IMG/VR virus record: IMGVR_UViG_3300036978_000157
Coordinates: 1-58,120 of that record
Direction: 5' to 3' (one strand)
From: a virus
Taxonomy: Duplodnaviria > Caudoviricetes
Length of the DNA: 58,120 bases
This document shows, one piece after another, positions 230 through 52,036 of this stretch. Position 1 is the stretch's first letter; each line of letters begins with the position of its first letter. The notes below the pieces were generated by a model, which did no database searches, was not told where the DNA came from, and saw nothing but the letters and a program-made list of their open reading frames with translations. The position numbers were made by a program, and so were the translations under genes.

Positions 230-483
230 TGATTTATTTGATTTTGGTTTAGTTTAGTTTTGCACCGCAAACTACACCATGAGGAATAGCAAGCGAGTGC
301 TTGGTTTCCTCTGCTGGACTCAACCCAGAGTTTCTTTCTGTCCAGAAATCGTTTTTCATGCGAGGTCGAAAACTCGCCAGCCAGAGTGCGGCTGAATCAC
401 TAATTTTATCGTAAACGATAATTTCGTCTTTCTCTTACACCGGACATTGCAACCGACTATTTACCATGTCAAGCAACTTTTTT

Positions 484-525
484 AAAAAAAATGAAAAGGG
501 GAGCAAGTTTTACCTTGCTCCCCTT
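484..525 (-). terminator. Intrinsic terminator after the scaffold gene
   Basis: AAGGGGAGCAAG/CTTGCTCCCCTT stem (496-525) followed by T-runs on the minus strand. Confidence 0.75.
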
Positions 526-547
526 CCAGCTAACAAGAATGATGGGA

Positions 548-1834
548 TTATGCGGTCGCCCTACCCTGTGGAGAGAAACGTGCCAATTTACTGGCAAGTC
601 CTTCGGCAATACTCATTCTTGGTTTCTGGGAATCCGATGCACTTGGCGATGACGAGATGCGTGATGATCCTTTGAGTTGTGCGATATACTCGTCTTTCTC
701 TTTGACCATCTCTTGGTATGCCTTGAGTTGTGCTTGAATCTTCTGATAGGCGCGGCCTTGGTGGATCAGTCGGTTCATGTCTTCAACTGATGCCTGCTCG
801 TTGGTCTGCTGTGTAGCTGCCAGCGCAATAGCCTCGTCGCGGGAGATGTCGAACTTGATTCCCTTTTCCTTCATGTAGTCAGCAACCACATCTGGAATTT
901 CGGTAGCCCTATCAATCTCTTGTTGAGTGTTCTTGTAGCCTTCACGCCACTGGTTCAGATACTTGTTCCTGCCTTCTTGCTCTTTTTGTTTAGCGGTTTG
1001 AATGATATTCTGCTTGGTTTCTTCAAAGTTGACAAGAGCTGCGTGATGTCCTTGAGTTGCTTTGATGAAGCTGTTGACTTGCTCCGCGAATTGATACTGC
1101 TTGAATTGCGAGAGCGAGTTCGTGATTTCCTCGAACGCTTGGTCGCGGTCGGCTTCTGCCGCTCTACGATCCTCTTCGGAGGACGCATTGAAGATGGAGG
1201 CATTTGCATTGACAGCACGGGAGAATGTCGAAAGAAGAGTTGGATCATTCGATAGCAATTGTCGCGCAGTGTCGTAGGTATTCTTGATAGGATCGAGGTA
1301 AGTTTTTTTGAAGTCGGGATTGCTTGTGATGTCGTGGAAGTCAAGCTTACCCCGGAGTTCCTTGATCTGCTCTGATAGTTGTTGCTCAACGTCCAGCTTC
1401 TCTTGGTTGGCTTTGTTGAGTTGTTCTTGGTAGTGGTTGGTTTCTTTAGTCGATGTTGACTCGGCGACCAATCGCTCAAGTTCTTGGATTTTGGTTTCAA
1501 ACTTGGGGATTTCATCTTTCTTGTATTTCTCAAGTTCTTCTTTGAGTTTTCGATTCTCTTCGATTTGCCGCTCAACGAATCCTTTTTTCTTTCCTGTGCG
1601 GTCAGACGTGATTTCAGCTTCGGTAACTCCCGTGTGTTCTTCTGGTGGTTCTTCTTCATTGAATTTTTTAATGCCGAGATTGGGATCACCAACATTGGTA
1701 GCACTGGGCTTGCCTTCGTCGGTTTGTTGCTGACTGAACTTCTTGAGGAAGTCAGATGTGTTACCTTTAATCGGAACTTGAGGTTTAGCCTTCAGTTCTT
1801 TGATTACTTCTGCTGTGTCGTTTGGGTCTGCCAT
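548..1834 (-). CDS. Putative capsid scaffolding protein
   Basis: 428 aa, E/K/Q-rich coiled coil, lies between portal and major capsid. Confidence 0.65.
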   Translation of the reverse strand: MADPNDTAEVIKELKAKPQVPIKGNTSDFLKKFSQQQTDEGKPSATNVGDPNLGIKKFNEEEPPEEHTGVTEAEITSDRTGKKKGFVERQIEENRKLKEELEKYKKDEIPKFETKIQELERLVAESTSTKETNHYQEQLNKANQEKLDVEQQLSEQIKELRGKLDFHDITSNPDFKKTYLDPIKNTYDTARQLLSNDPTLLSTFSRAVNANASIFNASSEEDRRAAEADRDQAFEEITNSLSQFKQYQFAEQVNSFIKATQGHHAALVNFEETKQNIIQTAKQKEQEGRNKYLNQWREGYKNTQQEIDRATEIPDVVADYMKEKGIKFDISRDEAIALAATQQTNEQASVEDMNRLIHQGRAYQKIQAQLKAYQEMVKEKDEYIAQLKGSSRISSSPSASDSQKPRMSIAEGLASKLARFSPQGRATA

Positions 1835-1837
1835 AAA

Positions 1838-2083
1838 TTAGATTTCGTCGAGGTCTGGGTCGATTGTGATGTCCGCTGGTTCTTTATGTTTTCCAGCAAC
1901 TTTTGTTTTTTTGAATGCTCCCTGCTCCTCAGTTCCAATAGCTTCAATAGTTTTGATTGCATGGATAAGCGTGGTTACTCCTTCTGGTGGGTTTACATTA
2001 AGTAGTAAATACGCCTGTAGTTTGTTCCAGTCTTCGTGTGAGGTTATTGCCGCGCATAGGGATTTTACTTTTTCTGTTGTCAT
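1838..2083 (-). CDS. Hypothetical protein (portal-scaffold linker gene)
   Basis: 81 aa, ATGA-coupled to the portal stop. Confidence 0.7.
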   Translation of the reverse strand: MTTEKVKSLCAAITSHEDWNKLQAYLLLNVNPPEGVTTLIHAIKTIEAIGTEEQGAFKKTKVAGKHKEPADITIDPDLDEI

Positions 2084-4566: not shown

Positions 4567-4586
4567 AATAATTAGACCTTTATCGT

Positions 4587-4964
4587 TTACGATAATTTAT
4601 TCAAGGCATTTCTTCGTTTGTTACACGAAGAACATCCGCGAGCTTTATGCTCAAGTTTAGTTCCTAAAACCTTATCAGTAGCCGCTGCTACAGTGTGGAT
4701 AGCTTGGGCAATACGATCTCCAATCCCATCAGCATACCAGCAACGCTCACTTGGTTGACGCTGGCAGATTTGATCTTCAACCATCTGCTCAATATTGCTT
4801 GGCAGTTCAACTCCGTTTGAGCGATAATCCTTCTGGATATTCTGCATCAAACTACTCCATGTGCTTCCGTAAACAATAGCAGGGAATTTGAGTTTATCGC
4901 GTTTGATCTCATACTTCCAATACCAACCACCGACTGGAGCGAGGTTTTTGTTTTTCAGTTTCAT
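4587..4964 (-). CDS. Hypothetical Cys-containing protein
   Basis: 125 aa, GCSSC motif; stop codon lies inside a palindrome copy. Confidence 0.7.
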   Translation of the reverse strand: MKLKNKNLAPVGGWYWKYEIKRDKLKFPAIVYGSTWSSLMQNIQKDYRSNGVELPSNIEQMVEDQICQRQPSERCWYADGIGDRIAQAIHTVAAATDKVLGTKLEHKARGCSSCNKRRNALNKLS

Positions 4965-5000: not shown

Positions 5001-6851
5001 ATGTCAAGAGTTTTTTCTTCCAACAAGGGTATTCAAAAATATGGGATGAAGTTCCCAGAAAACATGGACGAACTTGGAATAGAACTTTTCTGTTACTCAA
5101 TTTCCCGTGGAGAGTATGGAAAAGAATATTGCGTTAAGCACAATATTAACCTAACAGATTTTAAATTACTTTCTCCATCTGAGCATTTTCTTAATGCCGT
5201 GAAACTTCAATGGCCGACTGAGGTTTCTATCTACAACCGAGGATACACCAATACCCAGTTGATTAGGACACTGGATGAGTTGTGTTCTAATACCGACATC
5301 TGCTTGGCAGGAGCAGCTTCGATGGGTAAGTCATTCCCAGTTGCACTTTGGGTTTATCTTGATTGGTGTTCTGCCCCACATTGCACTTCTTCTTGGGTTG
5401 CTACCACCACTCTCGGTGCGTCTGAAGATCGTATCTGGGGTATCATCTCTAAACTTTGGAAGTGCGCCCGTGTTCAGTTTGGTAAGTTGATCGACTATCG
5501 CCACATGATTGTTTGGGGTGGCGCATCAAACGATGAGGATAAAGATTATCGTAATGCGATAAAAGCTCTGGCTTTTCAGTCCGGTAACGAGGGCCAGAAG
5601 GCTATTGATACTACCCGTGGTCGTAAAAATGATCGTGTTCGCTTGGCACTTGATGAGTTGCCCGAAATGGAACTCGGAGCAATCACTGCTCGCGTTAACC
5701 TTTCAGCAAACAACGATGTTACCTTTATCGGTATCGGAAACCCGTCAGCAGGCGACAATCCACACACTCGTTGGGCTATGCCTAAAGGTCATTCTAACTT
5801 CGATTCAGTCAATCCAGACTTAATGAAGTGGGATACGGAGACTGGAGTTTGCTTGTTCTATAACGGCATGAAGTCTCCTAACTTTGATGCTCCTCCAAAT
5901 GAACCATCTCCATTCCCGTTCCTTATGGATCGGAAGAAGCAGGAGATCATGCTCAAACAATGTTATGGAGACGAGAATGCTATCGACTATGTTCGTAATG
6001 CTATTGGTTGGTGGCCGAAAGCTGGATTTGCTCAAACAATTCTTACCGCTGATCTGATCCGTAATGCTGATACCAACGAAGAACCACTTTGGGATTCTGA
6101 AGGATTTACTAAAGTAGCAGGATTCGATACTGCATTTACAGTCGGTGGTGATAGATGCGTTCTGACAATCGCCAAACTTGGGTATGTGCGAGGGACTCGC
6201 AATCGTGTTATGTGGTTAGAAAGTCAGAAGGTAATCCAACTTTCTGCTAACGCCGCTGCTGAGTTTGAAATCCAACTTGCTACTGAAGTTGTTAATTATT
6301 GCCGTGCGGCTGGAGTGCAACCATCTAAATTTGGAATGGACGTGTCCGGTGATGGTGGCCGAGTTGGACAGGCTATCATTCGTGAGTGGCTACGCTTTGA
6401 TTCATCTGGAGCCGCTATCGCTCTTATCTCATCTATGGGTAAACCTACTGACCGAATCGCGGCAGAAGTTGATAAACGCTCGTGTAAGGATGTTTACGAT
6501 AGGTTAGTATCTGAGTATTGGTATTCAGCCTATCATGGATTTAAGAGCCGAGTTATCTTTGGTGTCAGTCCATCCGATGAACTGGCGCGGGAACTTTGCA
6601 TTCGTAGATACACGATTAAGTCTAAGAAGATTTCTGTAGAAACTAAAGATGACTTCAAAGGTAGAACAGGATTCTCACCCGACTTGGCTGACTCGTTCCT
6701 ATACTGCCTTGAAATGGCGCGGCGTAATGGACTCGTATTTATCGGAAACGATAAACCAGTTCCGACTAACAGATTTTGGGCACGGGATGAAAAGCCAGTC
6801 GAATACTCGCAAGATGATGATTACGGATCAGATGATAACGGAGATTGGTGA
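5001..6851 (+). CDS. terL: Terminase large subunit
   Basis: Walker A GAASMGKS, Walker B LALDE, coupling motif IGNP, nuclease motifs AGFDTA and SPDLADS. Confidence 0.9.
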   Translation: MSRVFSSNKGIQKYGMKFPENMDELGIELFCYSISRGEYGKEYCVKHNINLTDFKLLSPSEHFLNAVKLQWPTEVSIYNRGYTNTQLIRTLDELCSNTDICLAGAASMGKSFPVALWVYLDWCSAPHCTSSWVATTTLGASEDRIWGIISKLWKCARVQFGKLIDYRHMIVWGGASNDEDKDYRNAIKALAFQSGNEGQKAIDTTRGRKNDRVRLALDELPEMELGAITARVNLSANNDVTFIGIGNPSAGDNPHTRWAMPKGHSNFDSVNPDLMKWDTETGVCLFYNGMKSPNFDAPPNEPSPFPFLMDRKKQEIMLKQCYGDENAIDYVRNAIGWWPKAGFAQTILTADLIRNADTNEEPLWDSEGFTKVAGFDTAFTVGGDRCVLTIAKLGYVRGTRNRVMWLESQKVIQLSANAAAEFEIQLATEVVNYCRAAGVQPSKFGMDVSGDGGRVGQAIIREWLRFDSSGAAIALISSMGKPTDRIAAEVDKRSCKDVYDRLVSEYWYSAYHGFKSRVIFGVSPSDELARELCIRRYTIKSKKISVETKDDFKGRTGFSPDLADSFLYCLEMARRNGLVFIGNDKPVPTNRFWARDEKPVEYSQDDDYGSDDNGDW

Positions 6852-7904: not shown

Positions 7905-7912
7905 TTCCAGAA

Positions 7913-8344: not shown

Positions 8345-8369
8345 TTATCGGAACCGATAAAAAAGATGC

Positions 8370-9504: not shown

Positions 9505-10736
9505 TGAAAAAAGTCCCAATAGCACGAAAGAGTGAAGCGGCAGCATTGTCGCTGATAGCAATCGACAGAAACATCCTTTCCCAACAAACATGGGATAGTG
9601 GTTATTTCGCCATAAACGCCAACAGAATCGTTTTTGAAGCTCTCCAAGGGGTTCACCAGCGGACAGGCGTTTGCTGCCCGTTTTCTGCCATCGCAGAGTT
9701 GGAAGCTACAGGAAAGTTAGATGCCGCTGGCGGTGAGGATGGAGTTCACCAGATTCTATCCACGATGAATGTAGCTTCGGGTAAGGTTTGCCAAGACATG
9801 GCCGACGATTATCGGAAGCACCTGCACCGCACAAAATCATACCGCGATGTCATTACACTTTTCGAGAAGGAAGAACCAAACCTACGGACAGGTAAGACAA
9901 ATCTGAAGGAATTATCGGAAACGATAATGAACTCTGCCGAGGATCGAACGACAAAAGTAAAGCCAGTCAAAGACCTCATCATCGAAATCATTGATGAGAT
10001 GGAAGGTAAAGCTGTAAAGGAATTCTTTCCTACTGGACTACTCAAAGTAGATCGTGCGTTAAAGGGTGGAATGCACAAAGGAGAGATGATGACAGTAGCA
10101 TCAGAGACGGGTGGTGGTAAATCTATCTACCTCGTCCAAGCGGCACTCGCCAACCTGCAAGAAGGGAAGTCAGTTCTCTTCTTCAGCCTCGAAATGAAAG
10201 CGAAGGACATTCTAACTCGCATGGCTTGTAACTTGGCAGGCTACCCCGTGCGTGAACCAGAAGATTACAAGAACGCCAATCAACACGAACTCACCAAAAT
10301 CAGTGCCGCATTGTTGGAATTACACCAGTTACCCCTCGAAATCGTGGATGGAGTAGCCGAAATTGACGAGATTGAGGCCCAAATCAACCGATACGTTGGA
10401 GAAAAACGGGCAGATGTAATCGTCGTAGATTACCTTCAAATCATCTCATCTGACGGGGAAGAAGGCAGAGAAAGTCAGATTTCGGAGATCGCAAGGAGAT
10501 TAAAACTCGCAGCACTGAAGAATAACTCGATTATGCTCACCGCTTCCCAACTAAACGACGAGGGAAGACTACGCGAATCACGGGCAATCGGAATGCACTC
10601 TGATCAAGTAGTGTATATCGAACATATCAAGGAGAAGAGTAGGCTGACAATCAAGAAGAACCGCCGAGGACAAAGAAACTACATGACAGAAATCATTATG
10701 CGTGGTGACATCTCAAAACTTGAGGAGGTATACTAA
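9504..10736 (+). CDS. dnaB: Replicative DnaB-family helicase
   Basis: ASETGGGKS, FSLEM, VVDYLQ, SQLN, LRES, KNRRG motifs. Confidence 0.92.
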   Translation: MKKVPIARKSEAAALSLIAIDRNILSQQTWDSGYFAINANRIVFEALQGVHQRTGVCCPFSAIAELEATGKLDAAGGEDGVHQILSTMNVASGKVCQDMADDYRKHLHRTKSYRDVITLFEKEEPNLRTGKTNLKELSETIMNSAEDRTTKVKPVKDLIIEIIDEMEGKAVKEFFPTGLLKVDRALKGGMHKGEMMTVASETGGGKSIYLVQAALANLQEGKSVLFFSLEMKAKDILTRMACNLAGYPVREPEDYKNANQHELTKISAALLELHQLPLEIVDGVAEIDEIEAQINRYVGEKRADVIVVDYLQIISSDGEEGRESQISEIARRLKLAALKNNSIMLTASQLNDEGRLRESRAIGMHSDQVVYIEHIKEKSRLTIKKNRRGQRNYMTEIIMRGDISKLEEVY

Positions 10737-13676: not shown

Positions 13677-14342
13677 ATGGAAAAGCGAGCGGGTGTATAT
13701 GAAATTGAAATTGCTGGCTATAAATACTATGGCAGCAGCATCAATATTTACGCCCGTAAGCAAAACCATATAACAAAACTACGATCTGGAAAACATCGCA
13801 ATCAACGACTGCAAAGATGTTTTGATAAATATGGAGAAGATGCTATGGCATTCAAGATACTTGTCCTTTGTGACGAAGAATCTGTTCTTGATGAAGAGCA
13901 AAAATATTTGGACGAGAATATCGGTAACGATAATTGTCTGAATTTTTGCAGAAGCGCATCTGCTCCAATGGCTGGAATTAAATTTTCAGATAATCATAAA
14001 AAGAAAATGTCAGAATCGCAGGTAAGAAATAAATACATTTTTTATTATGACTGTGGAAAAATAGAATCATTTGATAGTTTAAAACTTGCTGGTGATAAAT
14101 TCGGAGTCAGAAGCTCAATTGTTTCTCGATGGTTTAAAAGAAAAGACCTTGGAAGAAATCACGGAATACTGCAATCCAGCAATATTATAAAAGCTGAAAA
14201 AATCGGAGATGAACATATTGTTTTATTACCATATAAATACAAACAAAAACCTTGGCAAATAGCTGGAGCATCCAGTCATAGTCAATACTACAGAGAAAAA
14301 AGAAATGAAATCAAAACCCGCAACTGGCAAAGCGTCAGTTAA
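13677..14342 (+). CDS. Free-standing GIY-YIG homing endonuclease
   Basis: GVYEI...YYGSS...R...H...EQKYLD...N, NUMOD3-like FSDNHKKKMSES; AT-rich relative to neighbours. Confidence 0.85.
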   Translation: MEKRAGVYEIEIAGYKYYGSSINIYARKQNHITKLRSGKHRNQRLQRCFDKYGEDAMAFKILVLCDEESVLDEEQKYLDENIGNDNCLNFCRSASAPMAGIKFSDNHKKKMSESQVRNKYIFYYDCGKIESFDSLKLAGDKFGVRSSIVSRWFKRKDLGRNHGILQSSNIIKAEKIGDEHIVLLPYKYKQKPWQIAGASSHSQYYREKRNEIKTRNWQSVS

Positions 14343-14965: not shown

Positions 14966-16095
14966 GTATCGTTAACGATAAATTCACCTTCCATGTCCTT
15001 GGATTACCACACACAGTTTCTTCCAAAGAATTTAATGCCTGCGCTTATACCCAAAAAGTGGTGAAGTTCGGAAAGATGATGACCGAGCGTGGACACACAG
15101 TAATCCACTACGGCCATGAAGACTCTGATCTAATCTGCACAGAACACGTTCCAGTCCTAACTAACCATGACTTCAAGAAGAGTTACGGATCACATGACTG
15201 GCGTAAGACCTTCTTTAAATTCGATACTAACGACCATGCCTATCAAACCTTCTACAAGAATGCTATCAAGGAAATTGAGAAGAGAAAGAACAAGCATGAC
15301 TTTATTCTACCATTCTGGGGTAGTGGAGTTCGTCCTATTTGTGACGCGCATCCAGACCTAATCACAGTAGAACCCGGAATAGGATATGCGGGTGGACATT
15401 GGGCAAGGTGGAAAGTATGGGAATCCTACGCAATCTACCATGCCTACTGCGGACTGAAGAATGTAGGAAACTGCAACCAAGACTGGTATGATGTAATTAT
15501 CCCAAATTATTTCGATGTAGAAGACTTCGATTACAAAACAGACAAAGAAGATTACTTTCTCTACCTTGGGCGAGTATATAGCGGAAAAGGTGTAGATGTA
15601 GCTATCCAAGCCACTGAAAAAGCAGGCGTAAAATTGGTCATAGCAGGGCAAAAAGAGGAAGGTTACAAATTACCAAGTCACGTTGAGTATGTCGGATACG
15701 CTGATGTCCCGACCAGAAAGAAGCTCATGTCTAACGCTAAAGCCAGCTTCCTTCCATCTATGTATGTAGAACCATTCGGTGGCGTTCAGATAGAAAACCT
15801 ACTCTCTGGCACTCCAACTATAACTACAGACTGGGGCAGTTTCGCCGAGAACAACCTACACGGGGTTACAGGCTACCGATGCAGGACGATGGGAGACTTC
15901 GTAGATGCAGTCAAAAATATAGATCAAATCATGCCTTGGGACTGCAAACGATTCGGAATGAACTTCAGCCTAAAGAAGGTAGCACCAATGTATGAGAAAT
16001 ACTTCTCAGATGTCATGGATGTCTACACAGGAGATGGATGGTATTCCGAGGGAAATGGCATTAACGCAATGAAAAGAAGCTACCCTACACTATAA
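14962..16095 (+). CDS. Glycosyltransferase (GT-B fold, GT4-like)
   Basis: YLGRV..GKG and EPFGGVQIE (Ex7E) motifs. Confidence 0.85.
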   Translation: MSIVNDKFTFHVLGLPHTVSSKEFNACAYTQKVVKFGKMMTERGHTVIHYGHEDSDLICTEHVPVLTNHDFKKSYGSHDWRKTFFKFDTNDHAYQTFYKNAIKEIEKRKNKHDFILPFWGSGVRPICDAHPDLITVEPGIGYAGGHWARWKVWESYAIYHAYCGLKNVGNCNQDWYDVIIPNYFDVEDFDYKTDKEDYFLYLGRVYSGKGVDVAIQATEKAGVKLVIAGQKEEGYKLPSHVEYVGYADVPTRKKLMSNAKASFLPSMYVEPFGGVQIENLLSGTPTITTDWGSFAENNLHGVTGYRCRTMGDFVDAVKNIDQIMPWDCKRFGMNFSLKKVAPMYEKYFSDVMDVYTGDGWYSEGNGINAMKRSYPTL

Positions 16096-16806: not shown

Positions 16807-17009
16807 ACGACGAGATCATAGCACTAACCATAGCATGGAGCATAGTAGTAGCCTGCTTCATAGTAGAGATACTAACTAAAGAATAATTTGAGAGCAATAA
16901 CGTGGTATTGTGGCGGGGGATAAACCTTGGCGGGTCTACCTCTGGTAAACAAGTAACCATTCCTGTAACCACATAAAACTGGAACTCTCATTATCGTTAA
17001 CGATAACCA

Positions 17010-17820: not shown

Positions 17821-17951
17821 GCCTCTGTCCTCCATAGAAAAAGAGATTCCTTCCATCGCTGCATGACGATAGAAGACTACGCAAGAATTAAATGCGATAT
17901 TCCATGACCAAAAAAATATCGGGCACGATAAAAAATAATCGCTCGAAACTA

Positions 17952-19629: not shown

Positions 19630-19706
19630 GGCCGAAAAGTAGATTATCGGTTACGATAAATCAATAAAATTATTTTGACTAAATGTGAAATAAATATATA
19701 AAACTA

Positions 19707-19735
19707 TTGACAAAGTGGGTGACTTGTGCTATACT
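19707..19735 (+). promoter_or_regulatory. Strong sigma70-like early promoter
   Basis: TTGACA, 17 bp, TGnTATACT, AT-rich UP element. Confidence 0.85.
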
Positions 19736-19743: not shown

Positions 19744-19960
19744 GTCGGGGAAGAGTAGTCTTCTCACGACAATTGATCATTTAACATTTTAGGTTTTCAG
19801 TTTCGGTTTTTCGTGTGCCGTTGGCATTATCGTAAAAGATAATGTCAGCGGTGTAATGCAGCTTGGTTATCGTGTCCGATAATCATGTGCGAGCAATCTC
19901 GCCAGCGGTGACAAGCCCGTAAAGCATAACGCAAATGCAGAGTCATAACACACGAAACAA
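19744..19960 (+). promoter_or_regulatory. Structured early leader (hairpin, boxA-like sequence, multibranch structure holding two palindromes)
   Basis: TGATCATTTAACA 19774-19786; TTTCGTGTG pairs with CACACGAAA; 15-bp hairpin around 19827-19842. Confidence 0.55.
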
Positions 19961-20573: not shown

Positions 20574-20650
20574 TTAGCCACTCTGTTCTGTTATCGTTTA
20601 CGATAGCAGGACAGCAGGCTGACTACAACCAGTCGGCAAAAACACGAAAC
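20574..20650 (+). promoter_or_regulatory. Repeated two-hairpin leader element E1
   Basis: TTAGCC-ACT-stem(palindrome)-CA-GGCTGA, second hairpin, ACACGAAAC. Confidence 0.7.
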
Positions 20651-25242: not shown

Positions 25243-25262
25243 GTTGTTATCGTTTCCGATAT

Positions 25263-28784: not shown

Positions 28785-28832
28785 TAGATTTTTATTATTT
28801 TTATGAAAATAATTTTATCGGTAACGATAATA

Positions 28833-34900: not shown

Positions 34901-36758
34901 CTTGCAGTCCCATCTCATCATTCGCAATCTCTTCTTTGAGGTTGTTGATATCTGTGCTGACAGACATCATCTGTTGAGCGAGTTCTTGTGCTGGATCAGT
35001 ATCAAGACCCGCTGCCATTTCGTCAGCTTTAGACTCGATATCAGTCTGCTCACTACCTTCTTGATCTCCTTGCTTTGCTTGCTTCTTAGCTCTCTTACCA
35101 GCAATCATCTGAGTGAAGATGGATGTTAAAATACCAGATGCTCCACCTACCCCGCCAGCGTATTGAACGCCTTCAAAGATGTCTTGGTTAGGATCGTAGA
35201 CAAACTTCTTAACAAGATTGCCAGCTATCTCTTGTGGCATCTCGTTAAACAATGCTTCTTCAGCACCTTCAGCAACAGCAACAGCAGCTTTATTTAAGCC
35301 TTTGTATATTGATTTTTGTTGAGCATCATCAAATCGGCTTATCCATTTTTGAAGTGGAGAATAAAGTTCAAGTGGTGCTTGAGTCAACGCAGAGAACAAT
35401 GCCGCTTGGTTTGCTTGCTCGTCCGTAGCACCATCAGACTTAGCTTCTGAGTATCCTCCCCATGCAGAGTTAAGACCACCAAATGTGAGTGTGTTTGCTT
35501 TCTGAAAAAGATTGATTACTCGTTCTGAATTGTATCCAAGCGATGCCCGTGCAGTATTTCCCAATGCAGCAGTAACAATTGCCGCGCCAGTAAAACCAAG
35601 TCCACTGGATACATCCCTACCAAACTGAGCCAATGGGCCAACCTTCCTTGGGTCTTGTCCTTGTTGCCTTTGTTCATCAGCATACTCTGCTGCATCGATA
35701 AATGACTGACCTGTTTGTTCAAGTCCTACGCCTTTCAGTAGCAGTCCAATCGGCCCAACAGTTCCAGAACCAATAGCTCCACCATATCCATCCCATGCTC
35801 GCTTGAAGATATCTGTAGCGACATCCATAAACTCTGGGGATGTCATTGCCCACTCTTCAGCTAACTTCCTTATTTGTGGATTCTTCTTTAGTTCTTCTAA
35901 TTGATCTGGTGCTTGACCAACATTCAGATACTGCCCCGCCATTCTTGAGATCAGACCCGGAGCGTCGATTCCCTTAGTCTTTGCGTAGTCCAAGAATTTA
36001 TCGTTTACGATAATGTTATCGATGAACTGACGCTGATCTCCGATTTGTTTGATAGCAGCACTTGCTCTTGTCTCAATAGGTATTGAGGTTATTTTACCTT
36101 CTCCTCCACCAAAACCTTTTTCTTCACCAAGTCCAGTCTCCAATTCAACTGAAACCCCCGGTTTACGAGTAATCAATTTACTCAAAAATCCAAGTTGATT
36201 TGCTTCGTGCAGTTGTTGGTTTTTTTGTAATTTAGATAATTCAGCACGAAGATCGCTTGGTTGTCCGATGTATTCAGAAACCGATCTAATAGCGAGGGGA
36301 GTATAACCAAAGCCCGATGAAGACTGAAGTTCTTTAGTCTTTTCTTTGATCAGATTCCCTCGAAAGTCCAATGACATTCCATCTGGGCTGATTGGTTCTT
36401 CGATTGTCCTTCCCTTAATATCGATTGCTTGGGCGCGGCGAACCTCTACTGGTTTACCTTCCACCAAAGAAGAAATTTTTCCACGCCCACTTTCGCTTTC
36501 CACCTTAATAGGTTCACCCGCCATGAAGGTCTTCGTTTGACCTTCCTCTTGATCCAAGATATCTGGCCCAGTAACCATTGGTTCTCCACCAATAGGAAGA
36601 CCACCAGCGCGATTGATAGCCTCTGGAATTTGACGCAACTGCTGAACTTGAGATTGTTCTTGTAATGATTGTTGTTTCTCTTCGTCAAAAACAAGATCAT
36701 TGATTGATACGCTTTTACCACCTCCATCAAAAACGAGGTCTTCAATACGAATGCTCAT
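28920..36758 (-). CDS. Giant internal virion / DNA-ejection protein (polyvalent-like)
   Basis: 2612 aa, last of three internal-protein genes, mostly helical with hydrophobic Gly/Ala segments. Confidence 0.7.
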   Translation of the reverse strand: MSIRIEDLVFDGGGKSVSINDLVFDEEKQQSLQEQSQVQQLRQIPEAINRAGGLPIGGEPMVTGPDILDQEEGQTKTFMAGEPIKVESESGRGKISSLVEGKPVEVRRAQAIDIKGRTIEEPISPDGMSLDFRGNLIKEKTKELQSSSGFGYTPLAIRSVSEYIGQPSDLRAELSKLQKNQQLHEANQLGFLSKLITRKPGVSVELETGLGEEKGFGGGEGKITSIPIETRASAAIKQIGDQRQFIDNIIVNDKFLDYAKTKGIDAPGLISRMAGQYLNVGQAPDQLEELKKNPQIRKLAEEWAMTSPEFMDVATDIFKRAWDGYGGAIGSGTVGPIGLLLKGVGLEQTGQSFIDAAEYADEQRQQGQDPRKVGPLAQFGRDVSSGLGFTGAAIVTAALGNTARASLGYNSERVINLFQKANTLTFGGLNSAWGGYSEAKSDGATDEQANQAALFSALTQAPLELYSPLQKWISRFDDAQQKSIYKGLNKAAVAVAEGAEEALFNEMPQEIAGNLVKKFVYDPNQDIFEGVQYAGGVGGASGILTSIFTQMIAGKRAKKQAKQGDQEGSEQTDIESKADEMAAGLDTDPAQELAQQMMSVSTDINNLKEEIANDEMGLQAIEKTAPAYQTAELALNEKKANLAALQAQFDKLSAGPAEAKTEAPAAAPATPTATKETTIAKINELNKEFDALDENDQVGIDRVNKAIAVEQNKLAELTAIEQGVEPQGTTPTREMGLPPSGRRSEFGTFFPDRPVLQAFVKATDKVLGGIKTTSKRAQKLKNAIRTGIAANAGFLAGTNTEVISSEEYGKLTGGKQVAADTGTYRATFFNGKKYLVVPDVNQLAGISIQGEQRAASRDAALDQESRAAAKKIEEEVIHLSMYQGIQDEYKALKKPKLSEEQYIVKRISDVAKEVRQTNPNALPGVSNAYLNDKTKLLDDMTFSQEFMRMVIQRVRTGQITEDLNAIRKAEQEAFSDQDKGNIIAWKNSILNALQFVRNSIARYLGKGTSTKEVKRMEDTINNILDGYGIVKGEANYEFKDYSKAEPTVKESLAVQPPLPQRTISDAIKDKDTFIFEGMRGAISLEDGTVIFREFGTNNKYEVPVNPNQDISEISGIEWVRKGQTKKIAAEPTATEVSAIIESDPQISEEEVNAEQDDFQVPQSLVEIEKSQVLNYIAEVLNTGESKIVKDGKRKQKVSQTPEFYSQITPRQIELANRQIDTALRIIDGLPISDEQKQSLAEPYLLIDQDITSYENNPEYKRIKDSKRREVFPTDQDVALTEAGGQVEAGAVSETITPAIEAKAGVTPEGEPMSKRGQSIMQKITTRMISDLEAQVEMLKPKDNKAYKEYQSRAAQKDRKWNKALLSPFSLAANLFTSNSFTAANNALDKIFRNNPDADFFSVAQNLSSMDEATAQRAYNISPYERLVLMEMMYELSSVYRKEVMDSNMKATARESFALESIDVEAGLARNIALTLRDSGRMVQAAAALRKLVGAGMAIDTYKRNIIASMGNLSTATKTSFNEVANVIRGDRRKSMDKVFNTKEVFRKAVSMLKMAQKNPEKVRQSIRAEVSKKQNQSTRTILLDFAAGLFDTKEDKYANMVVDQAVQSILSIGMNKKEFSIDNVSKFMYQSFATAAKQLGIQQAGIEKQKKGKRSGKYLEMVKAVIGNDNAYKSFVNDLANRMAEKYQSRDAFNADYAELFKALRSNQWADSLREQAIKDSAEFLNYKFADLFTYLGSQRNVNQEAVKQHIRTELQGTGASNELIEKFIQDTDKYLNEETNKVLKDKLGFRIDEKTGKVIPKPLLSQKIQEEAEAQFKAIKNLKDITRLSTSDEGNFKDGLISRIITEVGMDKEQATELADILSKQMTKIILAERSQIVDSAIKKAQKILADNKIKPTSNQRTILQKLVEMANMGVLDAEGVYEAFRKTHDFPKGFMPYDAEFTNTLREWGDRISKLPAGVIRSIEEEKMGRALMNKSKFTTGDVLSSYWYFALISQASTSAINALSGASNLISNVAVWSMYNPKSFFPMMRALYSAVSGKQSAAVNSFLYVMRNGLNPSGMQDEKRAKYPKTNVLEGATPDNTPKIVYYLTNFGDGKINFLPDWMNTALKNVNPRQLMRLLRATDMFLREVAYEAKAAQLGAAAYTREGFDMAKRQAELELASSQATGKQKDQEIIIRANEIYREQRLADEEQRAIAEQASLETAFNQDPQGLFGMLANFVNGLLAKYPATKFVIPFTNVVANVTNEFLNYTPIFSQYRLIRAKKSGMKDPFTQGRADKEYEIQMKGILGILAMVPFIIQALTGGDEEDQEKRPYIQFYAEGPKDPRQKKIWQQRGGQKYSVRVGDTYFSYLYTPLVIPLASGAMLQEEIKSMRKKGEKLQAEDIGKLAASAITAPFSIGFVAVLNQSFLTGLADLLEFKESQNPVEKGTQFVGGIISRMLVPGAFRDINKLYTEDKAVGGDYLSNFFKDMPGSVNFLNKDVNYFGEDAKFPSAIQEEGFGKRLASVFGRIVSTEKPDPAWEIMYRNNLTPPAWDSSLSWDNGKRMTKEQELQFVREAGPMMRDKIVEISDDLDELPLDEAQDLLSTEIRIIRREVKEDLQDRLEIPLDIE

Positions 36759-40651: not shown

Positions 40652-40672
40652 AGGGATTATCGTTACCGATAA

Positions 40673-41347: not shown

Positions 41348-43192
41348 TTAATTTATGATACTATATTCCCAGTATTTTTCTTGGCAACACAAAAATGGTT
41401 CACATTCTTGATTTTCTTCTGGGCAGTCACCGATTGGGGAATCATCGTTATTCTTGATGTTTGCCATTAACCTTACTCGGTCAATCGTAGCCGCGCCAGT
41501 TAGGTTGACTTTGATTTGGAACTCGCTTCCTTCTACCGATGGGATGCCTGCCAAATCATTACACTCGCTTGGGTCGGGCGTGTTAAACTTGTAGCGTTTG
41601 TAGCGATTACCACCTTTTTGTGGGACGCATTCAGTTACTTGTGGAGAGCATGGATCACACCCATAGGTTGTAGGAACTTTGAGTTCTGACCAACATGGAT
41701 TAGAATCGGATCGAAAATCAACAGAGCTATCTACTATCCCATTGATTTCACTCATCCACATTTCTCCACCCGTAATCTTTTTGCGGAGGAACTTATTCGT
41801 AGCCCCGCTTCGGTTGAAGTCATACCTGCCAGTGGTGAAGAAGGATTCAATCTGCCTTGTTCCATTTGGGCCGTAATCGTCGCCTTGAGAGGTAGTGAAT
41901 TCGTATAGTCGGTTCTTGTTATCTTTATCAAACGAGAATCCAAATCCTCGCTTCTGACCATCAATCAATGCCGTGAGTAGCTGAGTTGGTCTAAAGCCCG
42001 TCCAGATGCCATTCCAGCGAAAAGAAAGCTGTGCGTCTGGTGATGGTGAAGATGATTGGTCAAGGTCAAGAACTACCATTCCACGATGATAACGATTCAA
42101 TCCTTCTACACCTTCTGATCGAAGTGTCTGTGGTGCTACTGTGCTGATGAGGTAGTTGTTGAAGAACATCGTAGAAGCGAACTGCTTCAGCCAAGGCGTA
42201 TCGTTCTGCACCCATTTATTTACTTCCCTCGAAAGTTTACGAAGCGAGAAGTATCGAGCGAATTCAGATTGGCTATTGGAGTAGAATGCCCAACCATCAT
42301 GTGATCTAAACCAAAGTTCAGAGTTTGCTAATCCAACATACGGACTTGTGCATCCTCGTCCAAGCAATGAGATGCGTTGGATGTTTGATGTGTTCCATTG
42401 ATCTCTTGGAATAGAGACATCCATGATGAACGCTCCGTTACCAGTAAGAATAACAAGTTCACCTTGGCCGCGAAGGTTAGTTCCAATCTGTGGCATTACC
42501 TTCATTGCAGTAATATTTCCAATCATTGCTGGAGTAGAAAACGCGCCACCTTCTGCCCAGTATCCTATCTCTGTGAAGTTCTCGGTATTCTTGGTGTCTG
42601 TAAATCCGTTTCCGTAAATGATGTCAGATGCGTAGATTTGGTTGAACCTATCCGATACGAAAACTCGGCCAAAGGCATATTCCATCACTGTTCCAATCGG
42701 CATCTTTTGGTTGTATGGATTCAAACGATAAGCTGGTATCGTTAAGTCGCCATCCCATGCGATTGCGTTTTGGTATCCGTTCTGGATATACACCCTATCT
42801 TCGGCTTGCACAAACCAAGTGTGCATCATGCCCGGATCGTTGCCATCAATGATCTTGTAGGCAGTAGCAAGATTATTGCTGATCTTTAAAAAGTAGATAA
42901 CTCCAGATACTGAAATCAGTATTCCATCAGCAGAGTTGTATTTTACAGACCTGTATGGATACGCCCCTTGAAAGTTTCCATTCTGAATATCGTTAACGAT
43001 ACTCGCCGATTGCTCTGCCCCTGCAACTATTTGAATATTCCGAATACTTGGTCGGGTTCGGTTAACGCCTCCTCGGAATGTTCTGTTTACCGATTCTGAT
43101 ACTATAGACTCTGGTAAATACGATGGATGAGTATCAGCGTCTTGAGCGATAATACTTGTGAATCCATCAAAGACTGATCCTTCTGTTGGCAT
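41348..43192 (-). CDS. Putative tail nozzle / stabilisation protein (beta-propeller)
   Basis: 614 aa, beta-rich, GRVFV...IYASD pattern, position. Confidence 0.6.
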   Translation of the reverse strand: MPTEGSVFDGFTSIIAQDADTHPSYLPESIVSESVNRTFRGGVNRTRPSIRNIQIVAGAEQSASIVNDIQNGNFQGAYPYRSVKYNSADGILISVSGVIYFLKISNNLATAYKIIDGNDPGMMHTWFVQAEDRVYIQNGYQNAIAWDGDLTIPAYRLNPYNQKMPIGTVMEYAFGRVFVSDRFNQIYASDIIYGNGFTDTKNTENFTEIGYWAEGGAFSTPAMIGNITAMKVMPQIGTNLRGQGELVILTGNGAFIMDVSIPRDQWNTSNIQRISLLGRGCTSPYVGLANSELWFRSHDGWAFYSNSQSEFARYFSLRKLSREVNKWVQNDTPWLKQFASTMFFNNYLISTVAPQTLRSEGVEGLNRYHRGMVVLDLDQSSSPSPDAQLSFRWNGIWTGFRPTQLLTALIDGQKRGFGFSFDKDNKNRLYEFTTSQGDDYGPNGTRQIESFFTTGRYDFNRSGATNKFLRKKITGGEMWMSEINGIVDSSVDFRSDSNPCWSELKVPTTYGCDPCSPQVTECVPQKGGNRYKRYKFNTPDPSECNDLAGIPSVEGSEFQIKVNLTGAATIDRVRLMANIKNNDDSPIGDCPEENQECEPFLCCQEKYWEYSIIN

Positions 43193-43965
43193 TATGCGTT
43201 GATGCTCTTGATTACGATAAAACGCAATGTCAGTGATTCAGACAAACTTCCTGCGGTGATATTTCGGATAACGATATTGGCATTGCCTGCCGCTGGAGCC
43301 ACCGCGAAGTTGTATGAACCAAGCGTTCCTCCAGATATGTGACTAACCAATACAATGTCTGTGCCATCGATAACCGAATTGCTCAAGTTAAAAGTAACGG
43401 CAGTATCAGCAGCAAGAGCGGAACTATCGGTAACGATAATTCCAGTAGGACGATTCAGAGTAACAGAGTTCGTCTTTGCTCCTGCACCTTGTGTAATCGC
43501 TCCACCAGCACCAGTATTGTATCCAATCTTGGATGAGTTGCCATTAGCAAGAATAGTGCTACTTGAAGTAATATCGGCAGTTGATGTCATTCCAGATACA
43601 CTCAATGATGCTGTTGTAACTGCTCCGCCTGATGTAAGTGATCCAACGCTAACTGCTCCAGTAGTAGTCAATGATTGGCTACCAAGATCAACTGGTGCAG
43701 ATTGGAGAAGACTATTCAGAGTAGTGAACTCTACACTTCCAGTAGAAGTTTTGCGAAGGACAGTATTATTCGCTCCATTAGTCCATGATACAGTTCCGTT
43801 TGTGTTAGACACAAGAACTTGACCAGATGGTGGAGTCTGAAGAGTCTTATCGCAAGCGGAAGAATCTTCTACAACCAACCTTTTAGCGATTGCTGTGATC
43901 TCGCGGGGTTCGCAGAACAATGGATATTCCAAGTTGCATGGAGGTGCTGGAGTGCAAGGAGTCAT
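43192..43965 (-). CDS. Tail fibre / spike protein
   Basis: S/T/G-rich, IGY..GAGGAITQ segment. Confidence 0.6.
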   Translation of the reverse strand: MTPCTPAPPCNLEYPLFCEPREITAIAKRLVVEDSSACDKTLQTPPSGQVLVSNTNGTVSWTNGANNTVLRKTSTGSVEFTTLNSLLQSAPVDLGSQSLTTTGAVSVGSLTSGGAVTTASLSVSGMTSTADITSSSTILANGNSSKIGYNTGAGGAITQGAGAKTNSVTLNRPTGIIVTDSSALAADTAVTFNLSNSVIDGTDIVLVSHISGGTLGSYNFAVAPAAGNANIVIRNITAGSLSESLTLRFIVIKSINA

Positions 43966-46630: not shown

Positions 46631-46661
46631 ATTTTTATCGTTAACGATAGTTTAGGTTAAG

Positions 46662-49452: not shown

Positions 49453-49465
49453 GGTGTTTTATCGT

Positions 49466-49708
49466 TTACGATAATGGTTCCCACTTTACTTCTACTCGAT
49501 CAGTAAACCACTCAAGGTGACTTACCCATTCTGTCTCTGGCCCCGGAGGATCAGCTTTTACAAGCTCAACAAGAGTAGGATCAACCCAATCTTCGGGAAC
49601 TGGGTATGGACGAATCGTGTCGATGCGTGGATTACCTTCATCATCCAAGCAAACGCTGGAGAGGTATTTAGTTCCATCTGGAAATATGAGTCCGTATGTT
49701 TTAAGCAT
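49466..49708 (-). CDS. Hypothetical protein
   Basis: 80 aa; ends L-S-stop inside palindrome 49459-49474. Confidence 0.65.
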   Translation of the reverse strand: MLKTYGLIFPDGTKYLSSVCLDDEGNPRIDTIRPYPVPEDWVDPTLVELVKADPPGPETEWVSHLEWFTDRVEVKWEPLS

Positions 49709-49712
49709 AATC

Positions 49713-51746
49713 TTATGTTCCGTATCCGATTTCTACTGCATCAACCGAAGCTACCCACCGCCATGTTTCTGCGGCGATGCCAGTCACAGCGATTCGCAGA
49801 GTGTCGTCTCCATTGTTTGCAGAGAGCGCGATGACTGTTCCTGCGGCGTTATCGGTTCCGATAGTCACAGGTGCATAGACTTCGCTGGATGTGCCGCCGA
49901 CATTCTTGACTGCGTATTGGCGAACATAGTGGGCGACTGCGCTTCCATCCGATTTCACTCCAGAGATGTTGATCGTGCAGGCAATGACTTTCCCAGATGG
50001 GATGCCGAGATATGTCGTTGCTCCATCCAGTGCCATTTCCACGGCGGCGTTGGTAGTTGTTTTGCAGCGAAGGACGAAACGGGCGCGTTGGGCATCGCCG
50101 CTTGAAATAAATAATCCTGTAGCGTGTGCAAACATTGGTCTATCTGCTAAAGAATTCCATCCAATAGCAGTTCCGGCTAAAGATGATGTGACCCTACTTC
50201 CTCTTCCAAGCGCAACTCCTTGCGCTGCTTCGCATTGATAACCGATTGCTACAGATCCAAATAAATTTGTTGACGCTGTATTTTGAGCGCCAATTACAAC
50301 TGCGTTTGTTCCTGATGCTACTTGACTGGCTGATAATCGACTCGTTTGAAGGTCAATAGCATTCGCACCCCTTGCATTCCCGCCAGTTGCCGTGCCATCT
50401 GGCTTCGGCCCCGCGATCAGCGCACCCGTGCCTTTCGGTGTGAGGACAAGATCAGAATTTGTCGCGGTTGTATTCTCGGAAAGAGTTACATTTGTGCTGA
50501 CACTATGACCATTTACAAGCGTTCCCGCAGTAATGTCCGTTGTGAAAAGTGAAGCTCCACCACCAACGCTTGTGCTTACTTGGAATGAAGTTCCGCTGAC
50601 ATTGATAACATAGTAGTTTGTCGTTGTAACAAGACCCGCTCCACCAGTAAGTGCCGTAAATCGAACTGGCTGACCATTTGCAAATGTAGAACCAGTTGCC
50701 GTGATAATGTCAGTTGCTGCAACTCCAGTTACTGCAAACGAGACAATCGCATCGTCAATGATGATTCCGCTATTCTGAACAATGCCAGTTCCGACATCTG
50801 CACGAAGGACTGCGTTGTCTACTGCACCAACTGATCCACCGACTTTTGCAGCAAGATCAGTCGTTAGGTTTGCAATCTTACTTTGGTCAATAGCGGCAGA
50901 TGCCGATACATCAGCGTTTACAATGGTAGTTGCGGGACTTTGGAATACTCCGTTGACTACTTTGACTACACCAGTTCCTGTGACGCTGGGCATCGTGCTG
51001 CGCGTGTGAGATGGGTAACTACCACCGAAGTGGAATGTAAGACGATTGTTGTTCTGGTGCGCCCGTCCGTATAGGTATACAACGATTCGATCAGTCGAAA
51101 GAATCGTTGTTTGAGGCATCACTACAGATGCAACGTATTGGTTAATCTCTGCTGGATCGTAGATGTAAGTATCGTTCGATGTTGCAAGTAATACTGGTGC
51201 ATTCGTTCCGTCATACTTCCGAATTTCAACTTTAAAATAAATCTGGTTTGCAGAATTTGTAGTAGTGGACTCTATGAATAAATTGAAATCCCAAATACCA
51301 GCAGGGATTGCCGTAGCAGAAGGAGTGCTGACATCTGTTACAAACGATGCGAGGAAATCGTAACTTGCAGTTGAAAGAATTGGGGAAAGATACGAGGTTG
51401 CAGTTGTATCACCAACAAGACCAAGTTCTTTAGATGCATTCGGAGTTTGCGGGATGTTTGTTAGCGGCGTATCTGCCGCCGTATTGAAATTCAGATAATA
51501 GACTACTCCACCGCCACCAGAACCTCCAGATGGGATTGATCCGGGAACCCAGTTTGCTCCATCATATTGGAGGACTTGACCATTGACTGGCGTTGCATTG
51601 CTGACTGGTCTGCCTTGCAAGCCATCTACTGTAGGATTAGGATATGTTCCAGCAAGATCGCCGCCAGCAGCACCAGTTGGACTACCTCCTCCTGCTGATC
51701 CAGTAAAATCAAGTTTGCCAGTAAATGGATTAAATTTTAGTGCCAT
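49713..51746 (-). CDS. Fibre / spike protein
   Basis: AGGDLAGTYPNPTV motif, beta-rich domains, YadA-head-like SVAIG repeats. Confidence 0.7.
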   Translation of the reverse strand: MALKFNPFTGKLDFTGSAGGGSPTGAAGGDLAGTYPNPTVDGLQGRPVSNATPVNGQVLQYDGANWVPGSIPSGGSGGGGVVYYLNFNTAADTPLTNIPQTPNASKELGLVGDTTATSYLSPILSTASYDFLASFVTDVSTPSATAIPAGIWDFNLFIESTTTNSANQIYFKVEIRKYDGTNAPVLLATSNDTYIYDPAEINQYVASVVMPQTTILSTDRIVVYLYGRAHQNNNRLTFHFGGSYPSHTRSTMPSVTGTGVVKVVNGVFQSPATTIVNADVSASAAIDQSKIANLTTDLAAKVGGSVGAVDNAVLRADVGTGIVQNSGIIIDDAIVSFAVTGVAATDIITATGSTFANGQPVRFTALTGGAGLVTTTNYYVINVSGTSFQVSTSVGGGASLFTTDITAGTLVNGHSVSTNVTLSENTTATNSDLVLTPKGTGALIAGPKPDGTATGGNARGANAIDLQTSRLSASQVASGTNAVVIGAQNTASTNLFGSVAIGYQCEAAQGVALGRGSRVTSSLAGTAIGWNSLADRPMFAHATGLFISSGDAQRARFVLRCKTTTNAAVEMALDGATTYLGIPSGKVIACTINISGVKSDGSAVAHYVRQYAVKNVGGTSSEVYAPVTIGTDNAAGTVIALSANNGDDTLRIAVTGIAAETWRWVASVDAVEIGYGT

Positions 51747-51747
51747 A

Positions 51748-52014
51748 TTATGGGTAAGCTATTGTTATATTTACCAAGTTAGCATCATTTGTTGTAGGAG
51801 GTTGCACTGCATAAACAAGAGTCAATGTAGCAACCACATTACCACCATTCAAATATTGAACAGTTGCAATGTTGTTTGTTGCTCCGTAATACGAAATATC
51901 AATTTGGTCATATGCAGGAATCTCAAACCCTGCAATTTCCTTCAAAGATTCGTATAGATTGAAATTTTGCTGATCTGGAGTTAGATTGATAAAGCAGGGT
52001 TGAGTGAGTGCCAT
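51748..52014 (-). CDS. Small virion-associated protein
   Basis: IPAYDQI..SY..TNNIATVQY..GG..VATLTL.Y. Confidence 0.65.
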   Translation of the reverse strand: MALTQPCFINLTPDQQNFNLYESLKEIAGFEIPAYDQIDISYYGATNNIATVQYLNGGNVVATLTLVYAVQPPTTNDANLVNITIAYP

Positions 52015-52036
52015 AATATTTTATCGGTTACGATAA

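Follow-up and report, generated by a model that had tools for sequence, protein, structure and literature searches.

A dispersed 16-bp palindrome in the genomes of an uncultured phage group and its candidate phage-encoded reader

The stretch of 58,120 nucleotides analysed here (IMG/VR record IMGVR_UViG_3300036978_000157, Caudoviricetes; referred to as the window at its full length) comprises a phage genome unit of 54,210 bp and a terminal overlap of 3.9 kb. Genes were called greedily from open reading frames by the author, with no gene finder. They include terL, a DnaB-like helicase gene, a replication operon, an early operon preceded by the gene of protein P0245 (19030..19629, minus strand), a recombination operon encoding an exonuclease, P0247 and P0246 (the latter at 25804..26775, minus strand), and a gene for a protein of 2612 residues. 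A 16-bp palindrome with the core TATCG-N4-CGATA is distributed over this genome, between the genes as well as within them. The palindrome and its candidate readers are the subject of this study.

An exact pattern scan returned 32 matches in the window, i.e. 31 unique sites and, at 54616..54631 (core start 54617), the overlap duplicate of the site at 406. Coordinates are given for the 16-bp element, which starts one base ahead of the 14-bp core, and all sites below stem from the exact scan unless marked as one-mismatch copies. The initial annotation had reported at least 31 exact copies far above chance, and every start it listed was recovered. In 100 dinucleotide-preserving shuffles, 0.02 sites were expected and the largest value was 1, as compared to the 31 observed. 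Allowing one mismatch yielded merely five additional copies (core starts 19828, 21175, 23787, 33558 and 44267), and the motif population is therefore sharply defined. Two of these five, 19827..19842 and 23786..23801, had been noted before; the remainder had been missed. Isolated half-sites, considered as a second class, were few outside full sites. Fourteen of the 31 sites lie within called genes, the number given earlier and reproduced under the new gene calls. Shuffling synonymous codons, with each protein and its codon usage preserved, yielded 0.95 in-gene sites on average and at most 5 (1000 runs), and the codon permutation expectation was 0.13. Codon-preserving shuffles, proposed earlier as a check, do not reproduce the count. 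Non-coding DNA, which makes up about 12% of the genome, holds the other 17 sites, an enrichment of ~4.6-fold.

The in-gene sites are described first; conservation is given here and below as the number of aligned relatives that keep a site. The 3′ end of terL carries 6739..6754 (codons FIGNDK; kept in 80/80), and the DnaB-like helicase gene carries 9912..9927 (LSETI; 36/36). Three sites (31750..31765, 32873..32888 and 35998..36013) lie in the gene of the 2612-residue protein. Others are located in the GIY-YIG gene 13677-14342 (13918..13933), the P0247 gene (27239..27254; present in 5/5 complete relatives), 41348-43192(-) (42987..43002, SIVNDI; 5/5 relatives), 43192-43965(-) (43424..43439) and the 3′ part of 49713-51746(-) (49849..49864). 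At the 3′ end of the P0245 gene, 19070..19085 encodes AIVYDN, and the IV.D peptide recurs among family members. A helicase gene holds the one-mismatch copy 23786..23801 as well as an exact copy in its LSATI motif (24293..24308). The latter is present in the window alone, as compared to five complete relatives that code for the same five residues with other codons; this site has thus been written purely by synonymous change. In two cases, the site occupies the initial codons of a gene overlapping its predecessor by ATGA, namely 14966..14981 (codons 2-6 of a glycosyltransferase gene, 1 nt past the stop of an NrdR-like gene; kept in 19/19) and 20210..20225 (codons 5-9 of 20197-20436(+)).

Many of the non-coding copies are located at cistron junctions. 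Six end 3-13 nt upstream of the start codon of a gene that has no Shine-Dalgarno sequence: 4580..4595 (13 nt upstream of ATG 4566; kept in 67/75), 16991..17006 (3 nt upstream of ATG 17010; 7/10), 40657..40672 (5 nt upstream of ATG 40651; 5/5 relatives), 46635..46650 (4 nt upstream of ATG 46630; 5/5 relatives), 49459..49474 (6 nt upstream of ATG 49452) and 52021..52036 (6 nt upstream of ATG 52014; 20/23). The earlier observation that two sites supply a stop codon is borne out by 4580 and 49459, the spacers of which hold the stops of 4587-4964(-) and 49466-49708(-), respectively. Three further sites abut a TAA stop, i.e. 8345 (gene 7961-8344(+)), 40657 (40673-40888(-)) and 52021 (52037-52303(-)).

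A second group is associated with promoters and terminators. Ahead of the replication operon, the site 8345..8360 (kept in 46/47) lies 9 nt upstream of a -35 element, TTGACA. The intergenic site 17916..17931 lies 20 nt upstream of a promoter-like element, TTGACG-N-TAGTCT, that faces 18157-18879(+). The strongest sigma-70-like promoter of the window (19707..19735, plus strand; TTGACA-17-TATACT) drives the early operon; 19644..19659 is found 47 nt upstream of its -35 element and 14 nt upstream of the P0245 ATG. The site 28815..28830 directly follows a strong terminator (28870-28831, minus strand) and lies 30 nt upstream of the -35 element TTGACG (28784) of the exonuclease-P0247-P0246 operon, the sigma-70-like promoter of which (28757..28784, minus strand) reads TTGACG-16-TAGTAT. 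Here, the exact core is present in 4/5 complete relatives, with one mismatch in the remaining one. The spacer of this promoter holds an everted CGATAATCG: at 28772-28780 the half-site core appears in everted form as CGATAATCG or CGATTATCG, which is conserved in 5/6 close-family genomes (with equivalents of the arrangement in G001, G003, G004 and G005), and G002 has CGATTTTCG at this position. The second strong terminator with a site immediately behind it is 25208-25237(+), where 25247..25262 starts after ~10 nt and abuts the stop of 25263-25550(-). The intergenic site 406..421 (kept in 39/39) is located ~73 nt downstream of a terminator-like hairpin (527-494, minus strand). The palindrome itself was rejected as an intrinsic terminator: the flank composition has no T run, and the terminator scan calls neighbouring hairpins, not the sites.

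Promoters of the type TTGAC-N-TAnnnT were found within 90 nt in 19 of 362 oriented site flanks as compared to 256 of 32000 random places, a 6.5-fold enrichment. Their distances from the site cluster at 7-11 nt (9 cases), 20-22 nt (3) and 29-31 nt (5), besides one at 47 nt and one spurious overlap, and orthologous promoters differ by ~10 or 20 nt in their distance from the site. This pattern is suggestive of helical phasing between site and promoter, on the basis of three or four promoter families alone. The early region (19070-22764) is particularly rich, with eight exact sites and one one-mismatch copy. Its leader, downstream of the promoter at 19707 and upstream of ATG 19961, contains the one-mismatch copy 19827..19842 and the exact copy 19867..19882. 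Between the early genes, three sites form the apex of long sense-strand RNA hairpins (20591..20606, z -5.1; 21573..21588, z -4.3; 22749..22764, z -4.9), and 22058..22073 lies immediately 3′ of another such hairpin.

Over the genome as a whole, the spacing between sites is more even than random in the window and its five complete relatives (coefficient of variation 0.53-0.69; P(simulated value <= observed) 0.001-0.041), these tests being non-independent as the six genomes share sites. The initial annotation had taken the density of sites to indicate more than an ordinary operator set. The positions do not establish this; many sites occupy places expected of a regulator: upstream of promoters in ~10-bp steps, after terminators, in the early leader and at junctions. 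The even spacing and the sites kept in long genes do agree with a genome-wide role.

The conservation of the palindrome was followed in uncultured relatives. No cultured relative was found in the phage collection, neither by DNA nor by TerL protein, and a prophage and host search returned three matches alone, all in metagenome-assembled genomes and with a TerL identity of 28-29%. In IMG/VR, 279 contigs encode a close TerL (the close family), and the best 80 of them were sampled (TerL 88-98% identical in protein). The motif is present in 80/80, with 375 copies per 916 kb combined. At the nine alignable window sites, the ten core bases are 0.90-1.00 identical among orthologues, compared to 0.76-0.87 for the flanks (roughly 78% overall); 4580, 16991 and 52021 are less well kept. 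The five complete relatives have 22, 16, 19, 21 and 17 copies, with 0 for the reversed-pattern control. The motif is thus kept in related phages, as had been asked of it, and the constraint on the core is purifying selection on the sites, synonymous positions included.

Representatives with a TerL identity of 40-49% gave access to deeper lineages. Two complete genomes, G006 (54% G+C) and G007 (50% G+C), contain 26 and 29 copies of the identical core, and the TerL proteins of the motif-bearing lineages are 41-49% identical. The sister genomes G008 and G009 have one copy each (G008:49576, G009:27266). Among sister-clade loci, 65/75 are devoid of the motif and 10/75 show one copy (L135, L138, L179, L181-L184, L188, L193 and L194). 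These ten exceed chance, ~0.02 being expected per genome, and the single copies may be relics or one ancestral operator. A replacement palindrome was not found in the motif-free sister genomes. The terL 3′ site occupies the same alignment column in three motif-bearing lineages with the peptides IGNDK, IADDK and IGDDK, as compared to NFEEE and SFEEE at this position in G008 and G009; the other in-gene sites are mostly lineage-specific. A tree was built from 91 TerL sequences, namely that of the window, each eighth one from L001-L080 and the full set L116-L195; on it, a single gain or loss accounts for the entire distribution. Judging by these sequence comparisons, the motif is ancient.

The sequence logo of 126 sites from the six related genomes is two-fold symmetric across 18 bp with a K-W-W-M spacer. 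Positions 1 and 4 of the spacer are constrained in mirror fashion, and so are the flanks, where C occurs at position -1 in 2/126 and G at position +16 in 0/126 sites. It had been claimed that the spacer always begins with G/T and ends with A/C. This is correct for the window (31/31) and nearly so for the six related genomes (first base 126/126, last base 125/126), but the rule is broken in the lineages of G006, with spacers YCAA/TTGR, and G007, with outer spacer bases C..G. With respect to transcription, the purine-rich spacer strand is oriented 9:6 in the window (background 0.57), 8:7 in G007 and 9:5 in G006; the five close relatives (7:2, 7:1, 6:0, 9:0 and 5:2) have a mild sense-strand purine lean. 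One-mismatch copies and orthologous variants break stem pairs, compensatory changes were not seen, and the core is invariant rather than covarying. Since the constraints are mirrored out to positions -1 and +16, the window has no orientation bias and variants do not compensate, a symmetric reader of double-stranded DNA is favoured. The earlier preference for a dimeric DNA-binding protein over a simple RNA stem is upheld by these data.

Proteins that might read the site were sought by comparing the window proteins with nine complete genomes (BLASTP). P0246, P0245, P0247 and the DnaB-like helicase have matches in 7/7 motif-bearing genomes and none in G008 or G009, while the 2612-residue protein has a match in 3/7 motif-bearing genomes and likewise none in G008 or G009. 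Profiles of P0246 and P0245 gave no match in 4/4 motif-free complete genomes, in which the positive control was found. Conversely, the motif is present in 52/52 IMG/VR loci with a P0246 relative.

P0246 (323 residues) has a central LmbU-like helix-turn-helix domain. The NCBIfam model of LmbU regulators (NF038070) matches residues 146-269 with an E-value of 9.8e-7 over profile positions 12-129 of 171, and it matches 11/12 P0246 family members at E <= 0.01. In the helix 194-206, T196, R202 and R205 are invariant in three lineages. A structural model of P0246 (pLDDT 74.5) was compared to the PDB with Foldseek, and Noc and ParB were found at the top (ranks 1-3, 5-7 and 9), with probabilities of 0.54-0.99, weak E-values of 0.23-1.6 and 116-138 aligned columns. 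The language-model neighbours of P0246 include ParB-HTH, DUF3102 and DUF6192 clusters, which we treat as a lead only. For residues 120-323, a symmetric homodimer is predicted (ipSAE 0.79, best control 0.00); the model runs agree in >=92% of contacts, and the partner pLDDT is >=79. In a calibration that holds only roughly, as an alignment made by the author was used, a mark of 0.79 was reached by 20/30 proteins solved as pairs and 1/23 solved as single chains. Co-occurrence, the LmbU-like domain, the fold matches and the predicted dimer make 25804-26775, the first of several binders suggested initially, the leading candidate. With regard to the earlier analogy to parS, no canonical ParB domain was found: none of 12 P0246 relatives matches a ParB family at E <= 5, P0246 has no detectable N-terminal ParB-type CTPase domain, and protein family scans detected neither a ParB CTPase domain nor ParA. 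Upstream in the same operon, P0247 (26821-27636, minus strand; 271 residues, no family match) adjoins a PHROG 2139 exonuclease (27629-28498, minus strand) and may be a single-strand annealing or binding partner of the recombination module.

P0245 (199 residues) is the second candidate. An N-terminal helix-turn-helix-like domain of three helices is followed by a long helical hairpin and an acidic tail that is disordered, a layout that in the model resembles a small terminase (TerS; N-terminal helix-turn-helix, helical core and C-terminal tail). In the language-model comparison, Terminase_5/DUF1804 clusters come out as its neighbours (score 0.93, 160-162 shared features; again a lead only). It has no Pfam, PHROGs, NCBIfam or PDB match, nor a Foldseek match at E <= 0.001 in PDB or BFVD. 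The motif is present in 50/50 IMG/VR loci with P0245 relatives, and P0245 in 5/5 further motif-bearing records. In the window as well as in G006 and G007, the P0245 gene has sites both ahead of it and within it.

Two other potential readers were rejected. The NrdR-like zinc-ribbon protein (14711-14965) has no BLASTP homologue in G006 and G007, and neither has the Cro/CI-like helix-turn-helix protein (7599-7904), a binder suggested initially; being missing from two motif-bearing genomes, they are unsuitable as the common reader. A second NrdR-like search in G006 and G007 was blank as well, albeit run without a positive control, and the motif is absent from two distant phages in which a zinc ribbon matches weakly, as is any other enriched palindrome. 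The product of 18157-18879, likewise proposed as a binder, has no counterpart in G007 and is matched only weakly (25%) in G006. Neither an integrase nor an immunity repressor was identified among the proteins scanned, and a query with P0095 returned no locus in IMG/VR.

Several known systems invite comparison. PMC9283540 describes the stoperators of cluster A mycobacteriophages, which are bound by the L5 repressor, as more than 20 copies of a short site over a ~50-kb genome, located in promoter regions and short intergenic spaces, and proposes that they stop both initiation and elongation. It further describes the stoperator as a 13-bp asymmetric site that works in a single orientation and is read by a two-domain monomer. 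The present set is similar in its 31 copies, 17 of them non-coding or at cistron junctions and several overlapping start or stop regions. It differs in that the site is a 16-18-bp two-fold symmetric palindrome instead of an asymmetric 13-mer, that a palindrome is orientation-free and does not follow transcription, that fourteen copies lie within genes, and that the candidate binder belongs to a different family. The IncP plasmid RK2 has 12 OB sites, some of them distant from promoters. Their reader KorB is, according to PMC11790492, a dimeric helix-turn-helix protein and ParB-type CTPase sliding clamp that, together with KorA, represses promoters at short and long range. A palindromic operator of ~16 bp repeated around a replicon of similar size is shared with KorB, and the best fold matches of P0246 are of the ParB family; conversely, P0246 has no detectable ParB N-terminal domain, a KorA-like partner is not known here, and the site density is ~2.5 times that of the KorB operators. 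Of the known systems, stoperators and KorB operators are nearest to the present one in the way they work; with a site that is symmetric rather than asymmetric and oriented, and with no ParB CTPase domain found, the palindrome is nevertheless set apart from both.

The central domain of P0246 is homologous by profile, below the curated cut-off, to that of the actinomycete regulator LmbU. According to PMC6510168, LmbU forms a homodimer that binds a palindrome through its central helix-turn-helix domain, activates its targets and represses its own gene; the site given is an 8-bp CGCCGGCG. In contrast to a phage protein with ~30 sites, LmbU is a cellular, cluster-situated regulator that has few targets. 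Finally, scattered short palindromes that are read by dimeric helix-turn-helix proteins mark or organise DNA in the systems Noc/NBS, SlmA/SBS and MatP/matS and in the dispersed centromeres of the plasmid prophage N15, which act on chromosome position, division or partition. The structural match ranked first for P0246 is Noc (weak E-value), and the spacing of the palindrome is more even than random; unlike in these systems, a membrane-targeting helix, a CTPase domain and a ParA partner were not found.

From the excess, symmetry, purifying selection, positional preference and protein co-occurrence demonstrated above, we infer the identity of the binder and the effect of binding as follows. With moderate confidence, the palindrome is assigned to a dispersed operator set for a phage-encoded symmetric dimer, probably P0246, that acts as a global transcription regulator or roadblock. 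In this proposal, (A)TTATCG-KWWM-CGATAA(T) would be the recognition site on double-stranded DNA, each subunit reading one TTATCGK half-site. The most likely reader would be P0246, with P0245 as second candidate or partner. Bound upstream of the sigma-70-type promoters for replication and recombination, the dimer could contact the host RNA polymerase and activate or insulate transcription. Roadblocks or punctuation that limit or shut down transcription would be provided by the copies of the early leader, those between early cistrons, those behind terminators and those at late cistron junctions, the heaviest load falling on the early operon, and copies within long genes would maintain site density.

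A number of observations weigh against the assignment. Conserved sites deep in essential genes (in terL, across three lineages) and an even spacing are not needed by a plain promoter regulator. The LmbU score of P0246 is 28.9 bits at a curated cut-off of 125, P0246 has no Pfam (E <= 0.01), PHROGs or PDB sequence match, and its Foldseek E-values are all above 0.2. The co-occurrence of protein and motif amounts to essentially one evolutionary event on the TerL tree, and five genes co-travel with the motif. Pooled over the six related genomes, which share sites and are thus non-independent, the spacer is purine-rich in the sense strand at 43:11, and G004 alone gives 9:0 (p 0.014, background 0.60). 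Moreover, early sites cap sense-strand hairpins with G-U pairs, which points to an RNA-level feature there.

The strongest rival is a self-marking or packaging tag every few kb that is read by P0245 or a Noc/ParB-like P0246 and selects, condenses, segregates or protects the DNA, comparable in kind to uptake sequences, to NBS/SBS/matS sites or to dispersed centromeres and not to an operator set. We consider it unlikely, yet it stays alive because sites are conserved within genes, that of terL among them, and because the even spacing is seen in all six related genomes. Long genes have internal sites in each lineage (three in the giant gene of the window, four in G006 and two in G007), and the terL 3′ site is kept in three lineages at the price of an altered peptide. 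The TerS-like layout of P0245 with its terminase-type neighbours (a lead only), the sites before and within its gene, and the Noc and ParB matches of P0246 fit as well. Conversely, the spacing tests are non-independent through shared sites, the putative recognition helix of P0245 shows little conservation among lineages whose core is identical, most family members have no site ahead of the P0245 start codon, and neither a ParB CTPase domain nor ParA was found. Clustering in the early operon and the recurring promoter distances are unexpected for a pure tag. In its most far-reaching form, this proposal would make the palindrome a viral “self” tag, with a copy at least every 5-8 kb that is written into essential genes by synonymous and even amino-acid changes and read by P0246 and P0245 for choosing, compacting or protecting DNA in packaging or replication, transcription control being a side effect; this version appears doubtful to us.

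It is improbable that the functional form is an mRNA hairpin with a 6-7 bp stem and a tetraloop that governs RNase III-type processing, stability or translation at the start codon. The folding data do contain a genuine RNA component. Among 181 sites, 13 gain at least five extra pairs in the sense strand if G-U is allowed, compared to 2 in the antisense strand and 0 with Watson-Crick pairs alone; because G-U is needed, the extra pairs form in the sense strand only. These hairpin-capping sites mostly lie between early cistrons, in the window as well as in G006 and G007. In the early cassettes (n = 7), the hairpins have stems of up to ~20-25 bp with z from -4.3 to -7.9, and 0/200 shuffles fold equally well. 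The predicted folds fit the ~20 bp of double-stranded RNA between cistrons that is typical of RNase III-type hairpins in the early cassettes only. The six sites directly before starts without a Shine-Dalgarno sequence and the pooled purine bias may be added in favour. However, the extended stem is missing at 168/181 sites, the basic stem is invariant, and its variants break pairs with no compensation. Both strands show mirrored constraints, even at loop ends that are unable to pair, and the orientation in the window is unbiased. Sites after terminators and upstream of promoters are likewise at odds with an mRNA element. In one cassette, the long hairpin has an apex of its own with the site beside it, for which reason the hairpins are taken as a separate element associated with the DNA site; possibly, they are processing sites.

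The early cassettes (window 20560-22820 (+), L199:7225-7880 (-) and L196:10625-10725 (+)) consist of three parts. A long hairpin clamped by CAGAC...GTCTG is the first. The second is a 6-9-bp hairpin with a TGG loop and a covarying stem (CTTACA/TGTAAG as compared to GTAGCA/TGCTAC), and the third a leader, AAAAACACGAAAC, directly ahead of the ATG.

That a conserved host transcription factor or nucleoid protein reads the site, the phages having copied a host box, is very improbable: such a factor could explain the identical core across phages of 45%, 50% and 54% G+C, and the single copies in 10/75 sister-clade loci also speak for it, but the motif follows a phage gene module and not genome composition, and no counterpart of the phage NrdR-like zinc ribbon was found in G006 or G007. 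To our knowledge, the site is unlike the DnaA, NrdR, Fur, IHF and LexA boxes. A literature search by motif letters, a noisy approach that gave unrelated papers, retrieved no described box matching the motif.

Dispersed single-operator regulons as such are already known in a few phages and plasmids, i.e. the L5 stoperators and the KorB operators. The present set differs in having a symmetric site that is common to lineages with a TerL identity of 41-49% and maintained inside coding sequence, up to an altered terminase peptide. The phage group is abundant and wholly uncultured. A sharply defined DNA site is paired with two candidate proteins of no assigned family, so that function could be assigned by a simple gel shift. 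Such a binding test could reveal whether phages use genome-wide tags beyond transcription; if true, the self tag would be the phage counterpart of uptake sequences or of Noc, SlmA and MatP sites.

Some further features of the genome are of note. The sigma-70-like promoters 7930-7958, 10892-10920 and 28757-28784 (TTGACA-17-TAGTAT/TACTAT) end 2-7 nt ahead of a start codon, and most genes have no Shine-Dalgarno sequence. Leaderless mRNAs, and perhaps a host among the actinobacteria, are suggested by these two features. The 56-bp divergent region 7905-7960 between the Cro-like helix-turn-helix gene and 7961-8344 contains a palindrome, TTGACAAGTCAA, that overlaps a -35 element and may be the Cro-like protein's own operator. 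The product of 14711-14965 (+) is an 84-residue NrdR-type zinc ribbon that has no ATP-cone (PF22811, 38.1 bits at a cut-off of 27.2), with 59-98% identity across 93 database clusters of the phage family; the longer 120-residue open reading frame start of this gene is probably wrong. The 2612-residue protein (28920-36758, minus strand) has no Pfam or PHROGs match, and BLAST relatives with 25-26% identity are encoded in G006 and G007. The GIY-YIG endonuclease gene (13677-14342, plus strand) is present in the window and G001 only among the six close genomes, yet carries a site; its distribution is as would be expected for a mobile homing gene. Lastly, a stretch of ~58 nt is near-exactly repeated at 11031-11088 and 12452-12509, inside the genes 10927-11211 and 12327-12731.

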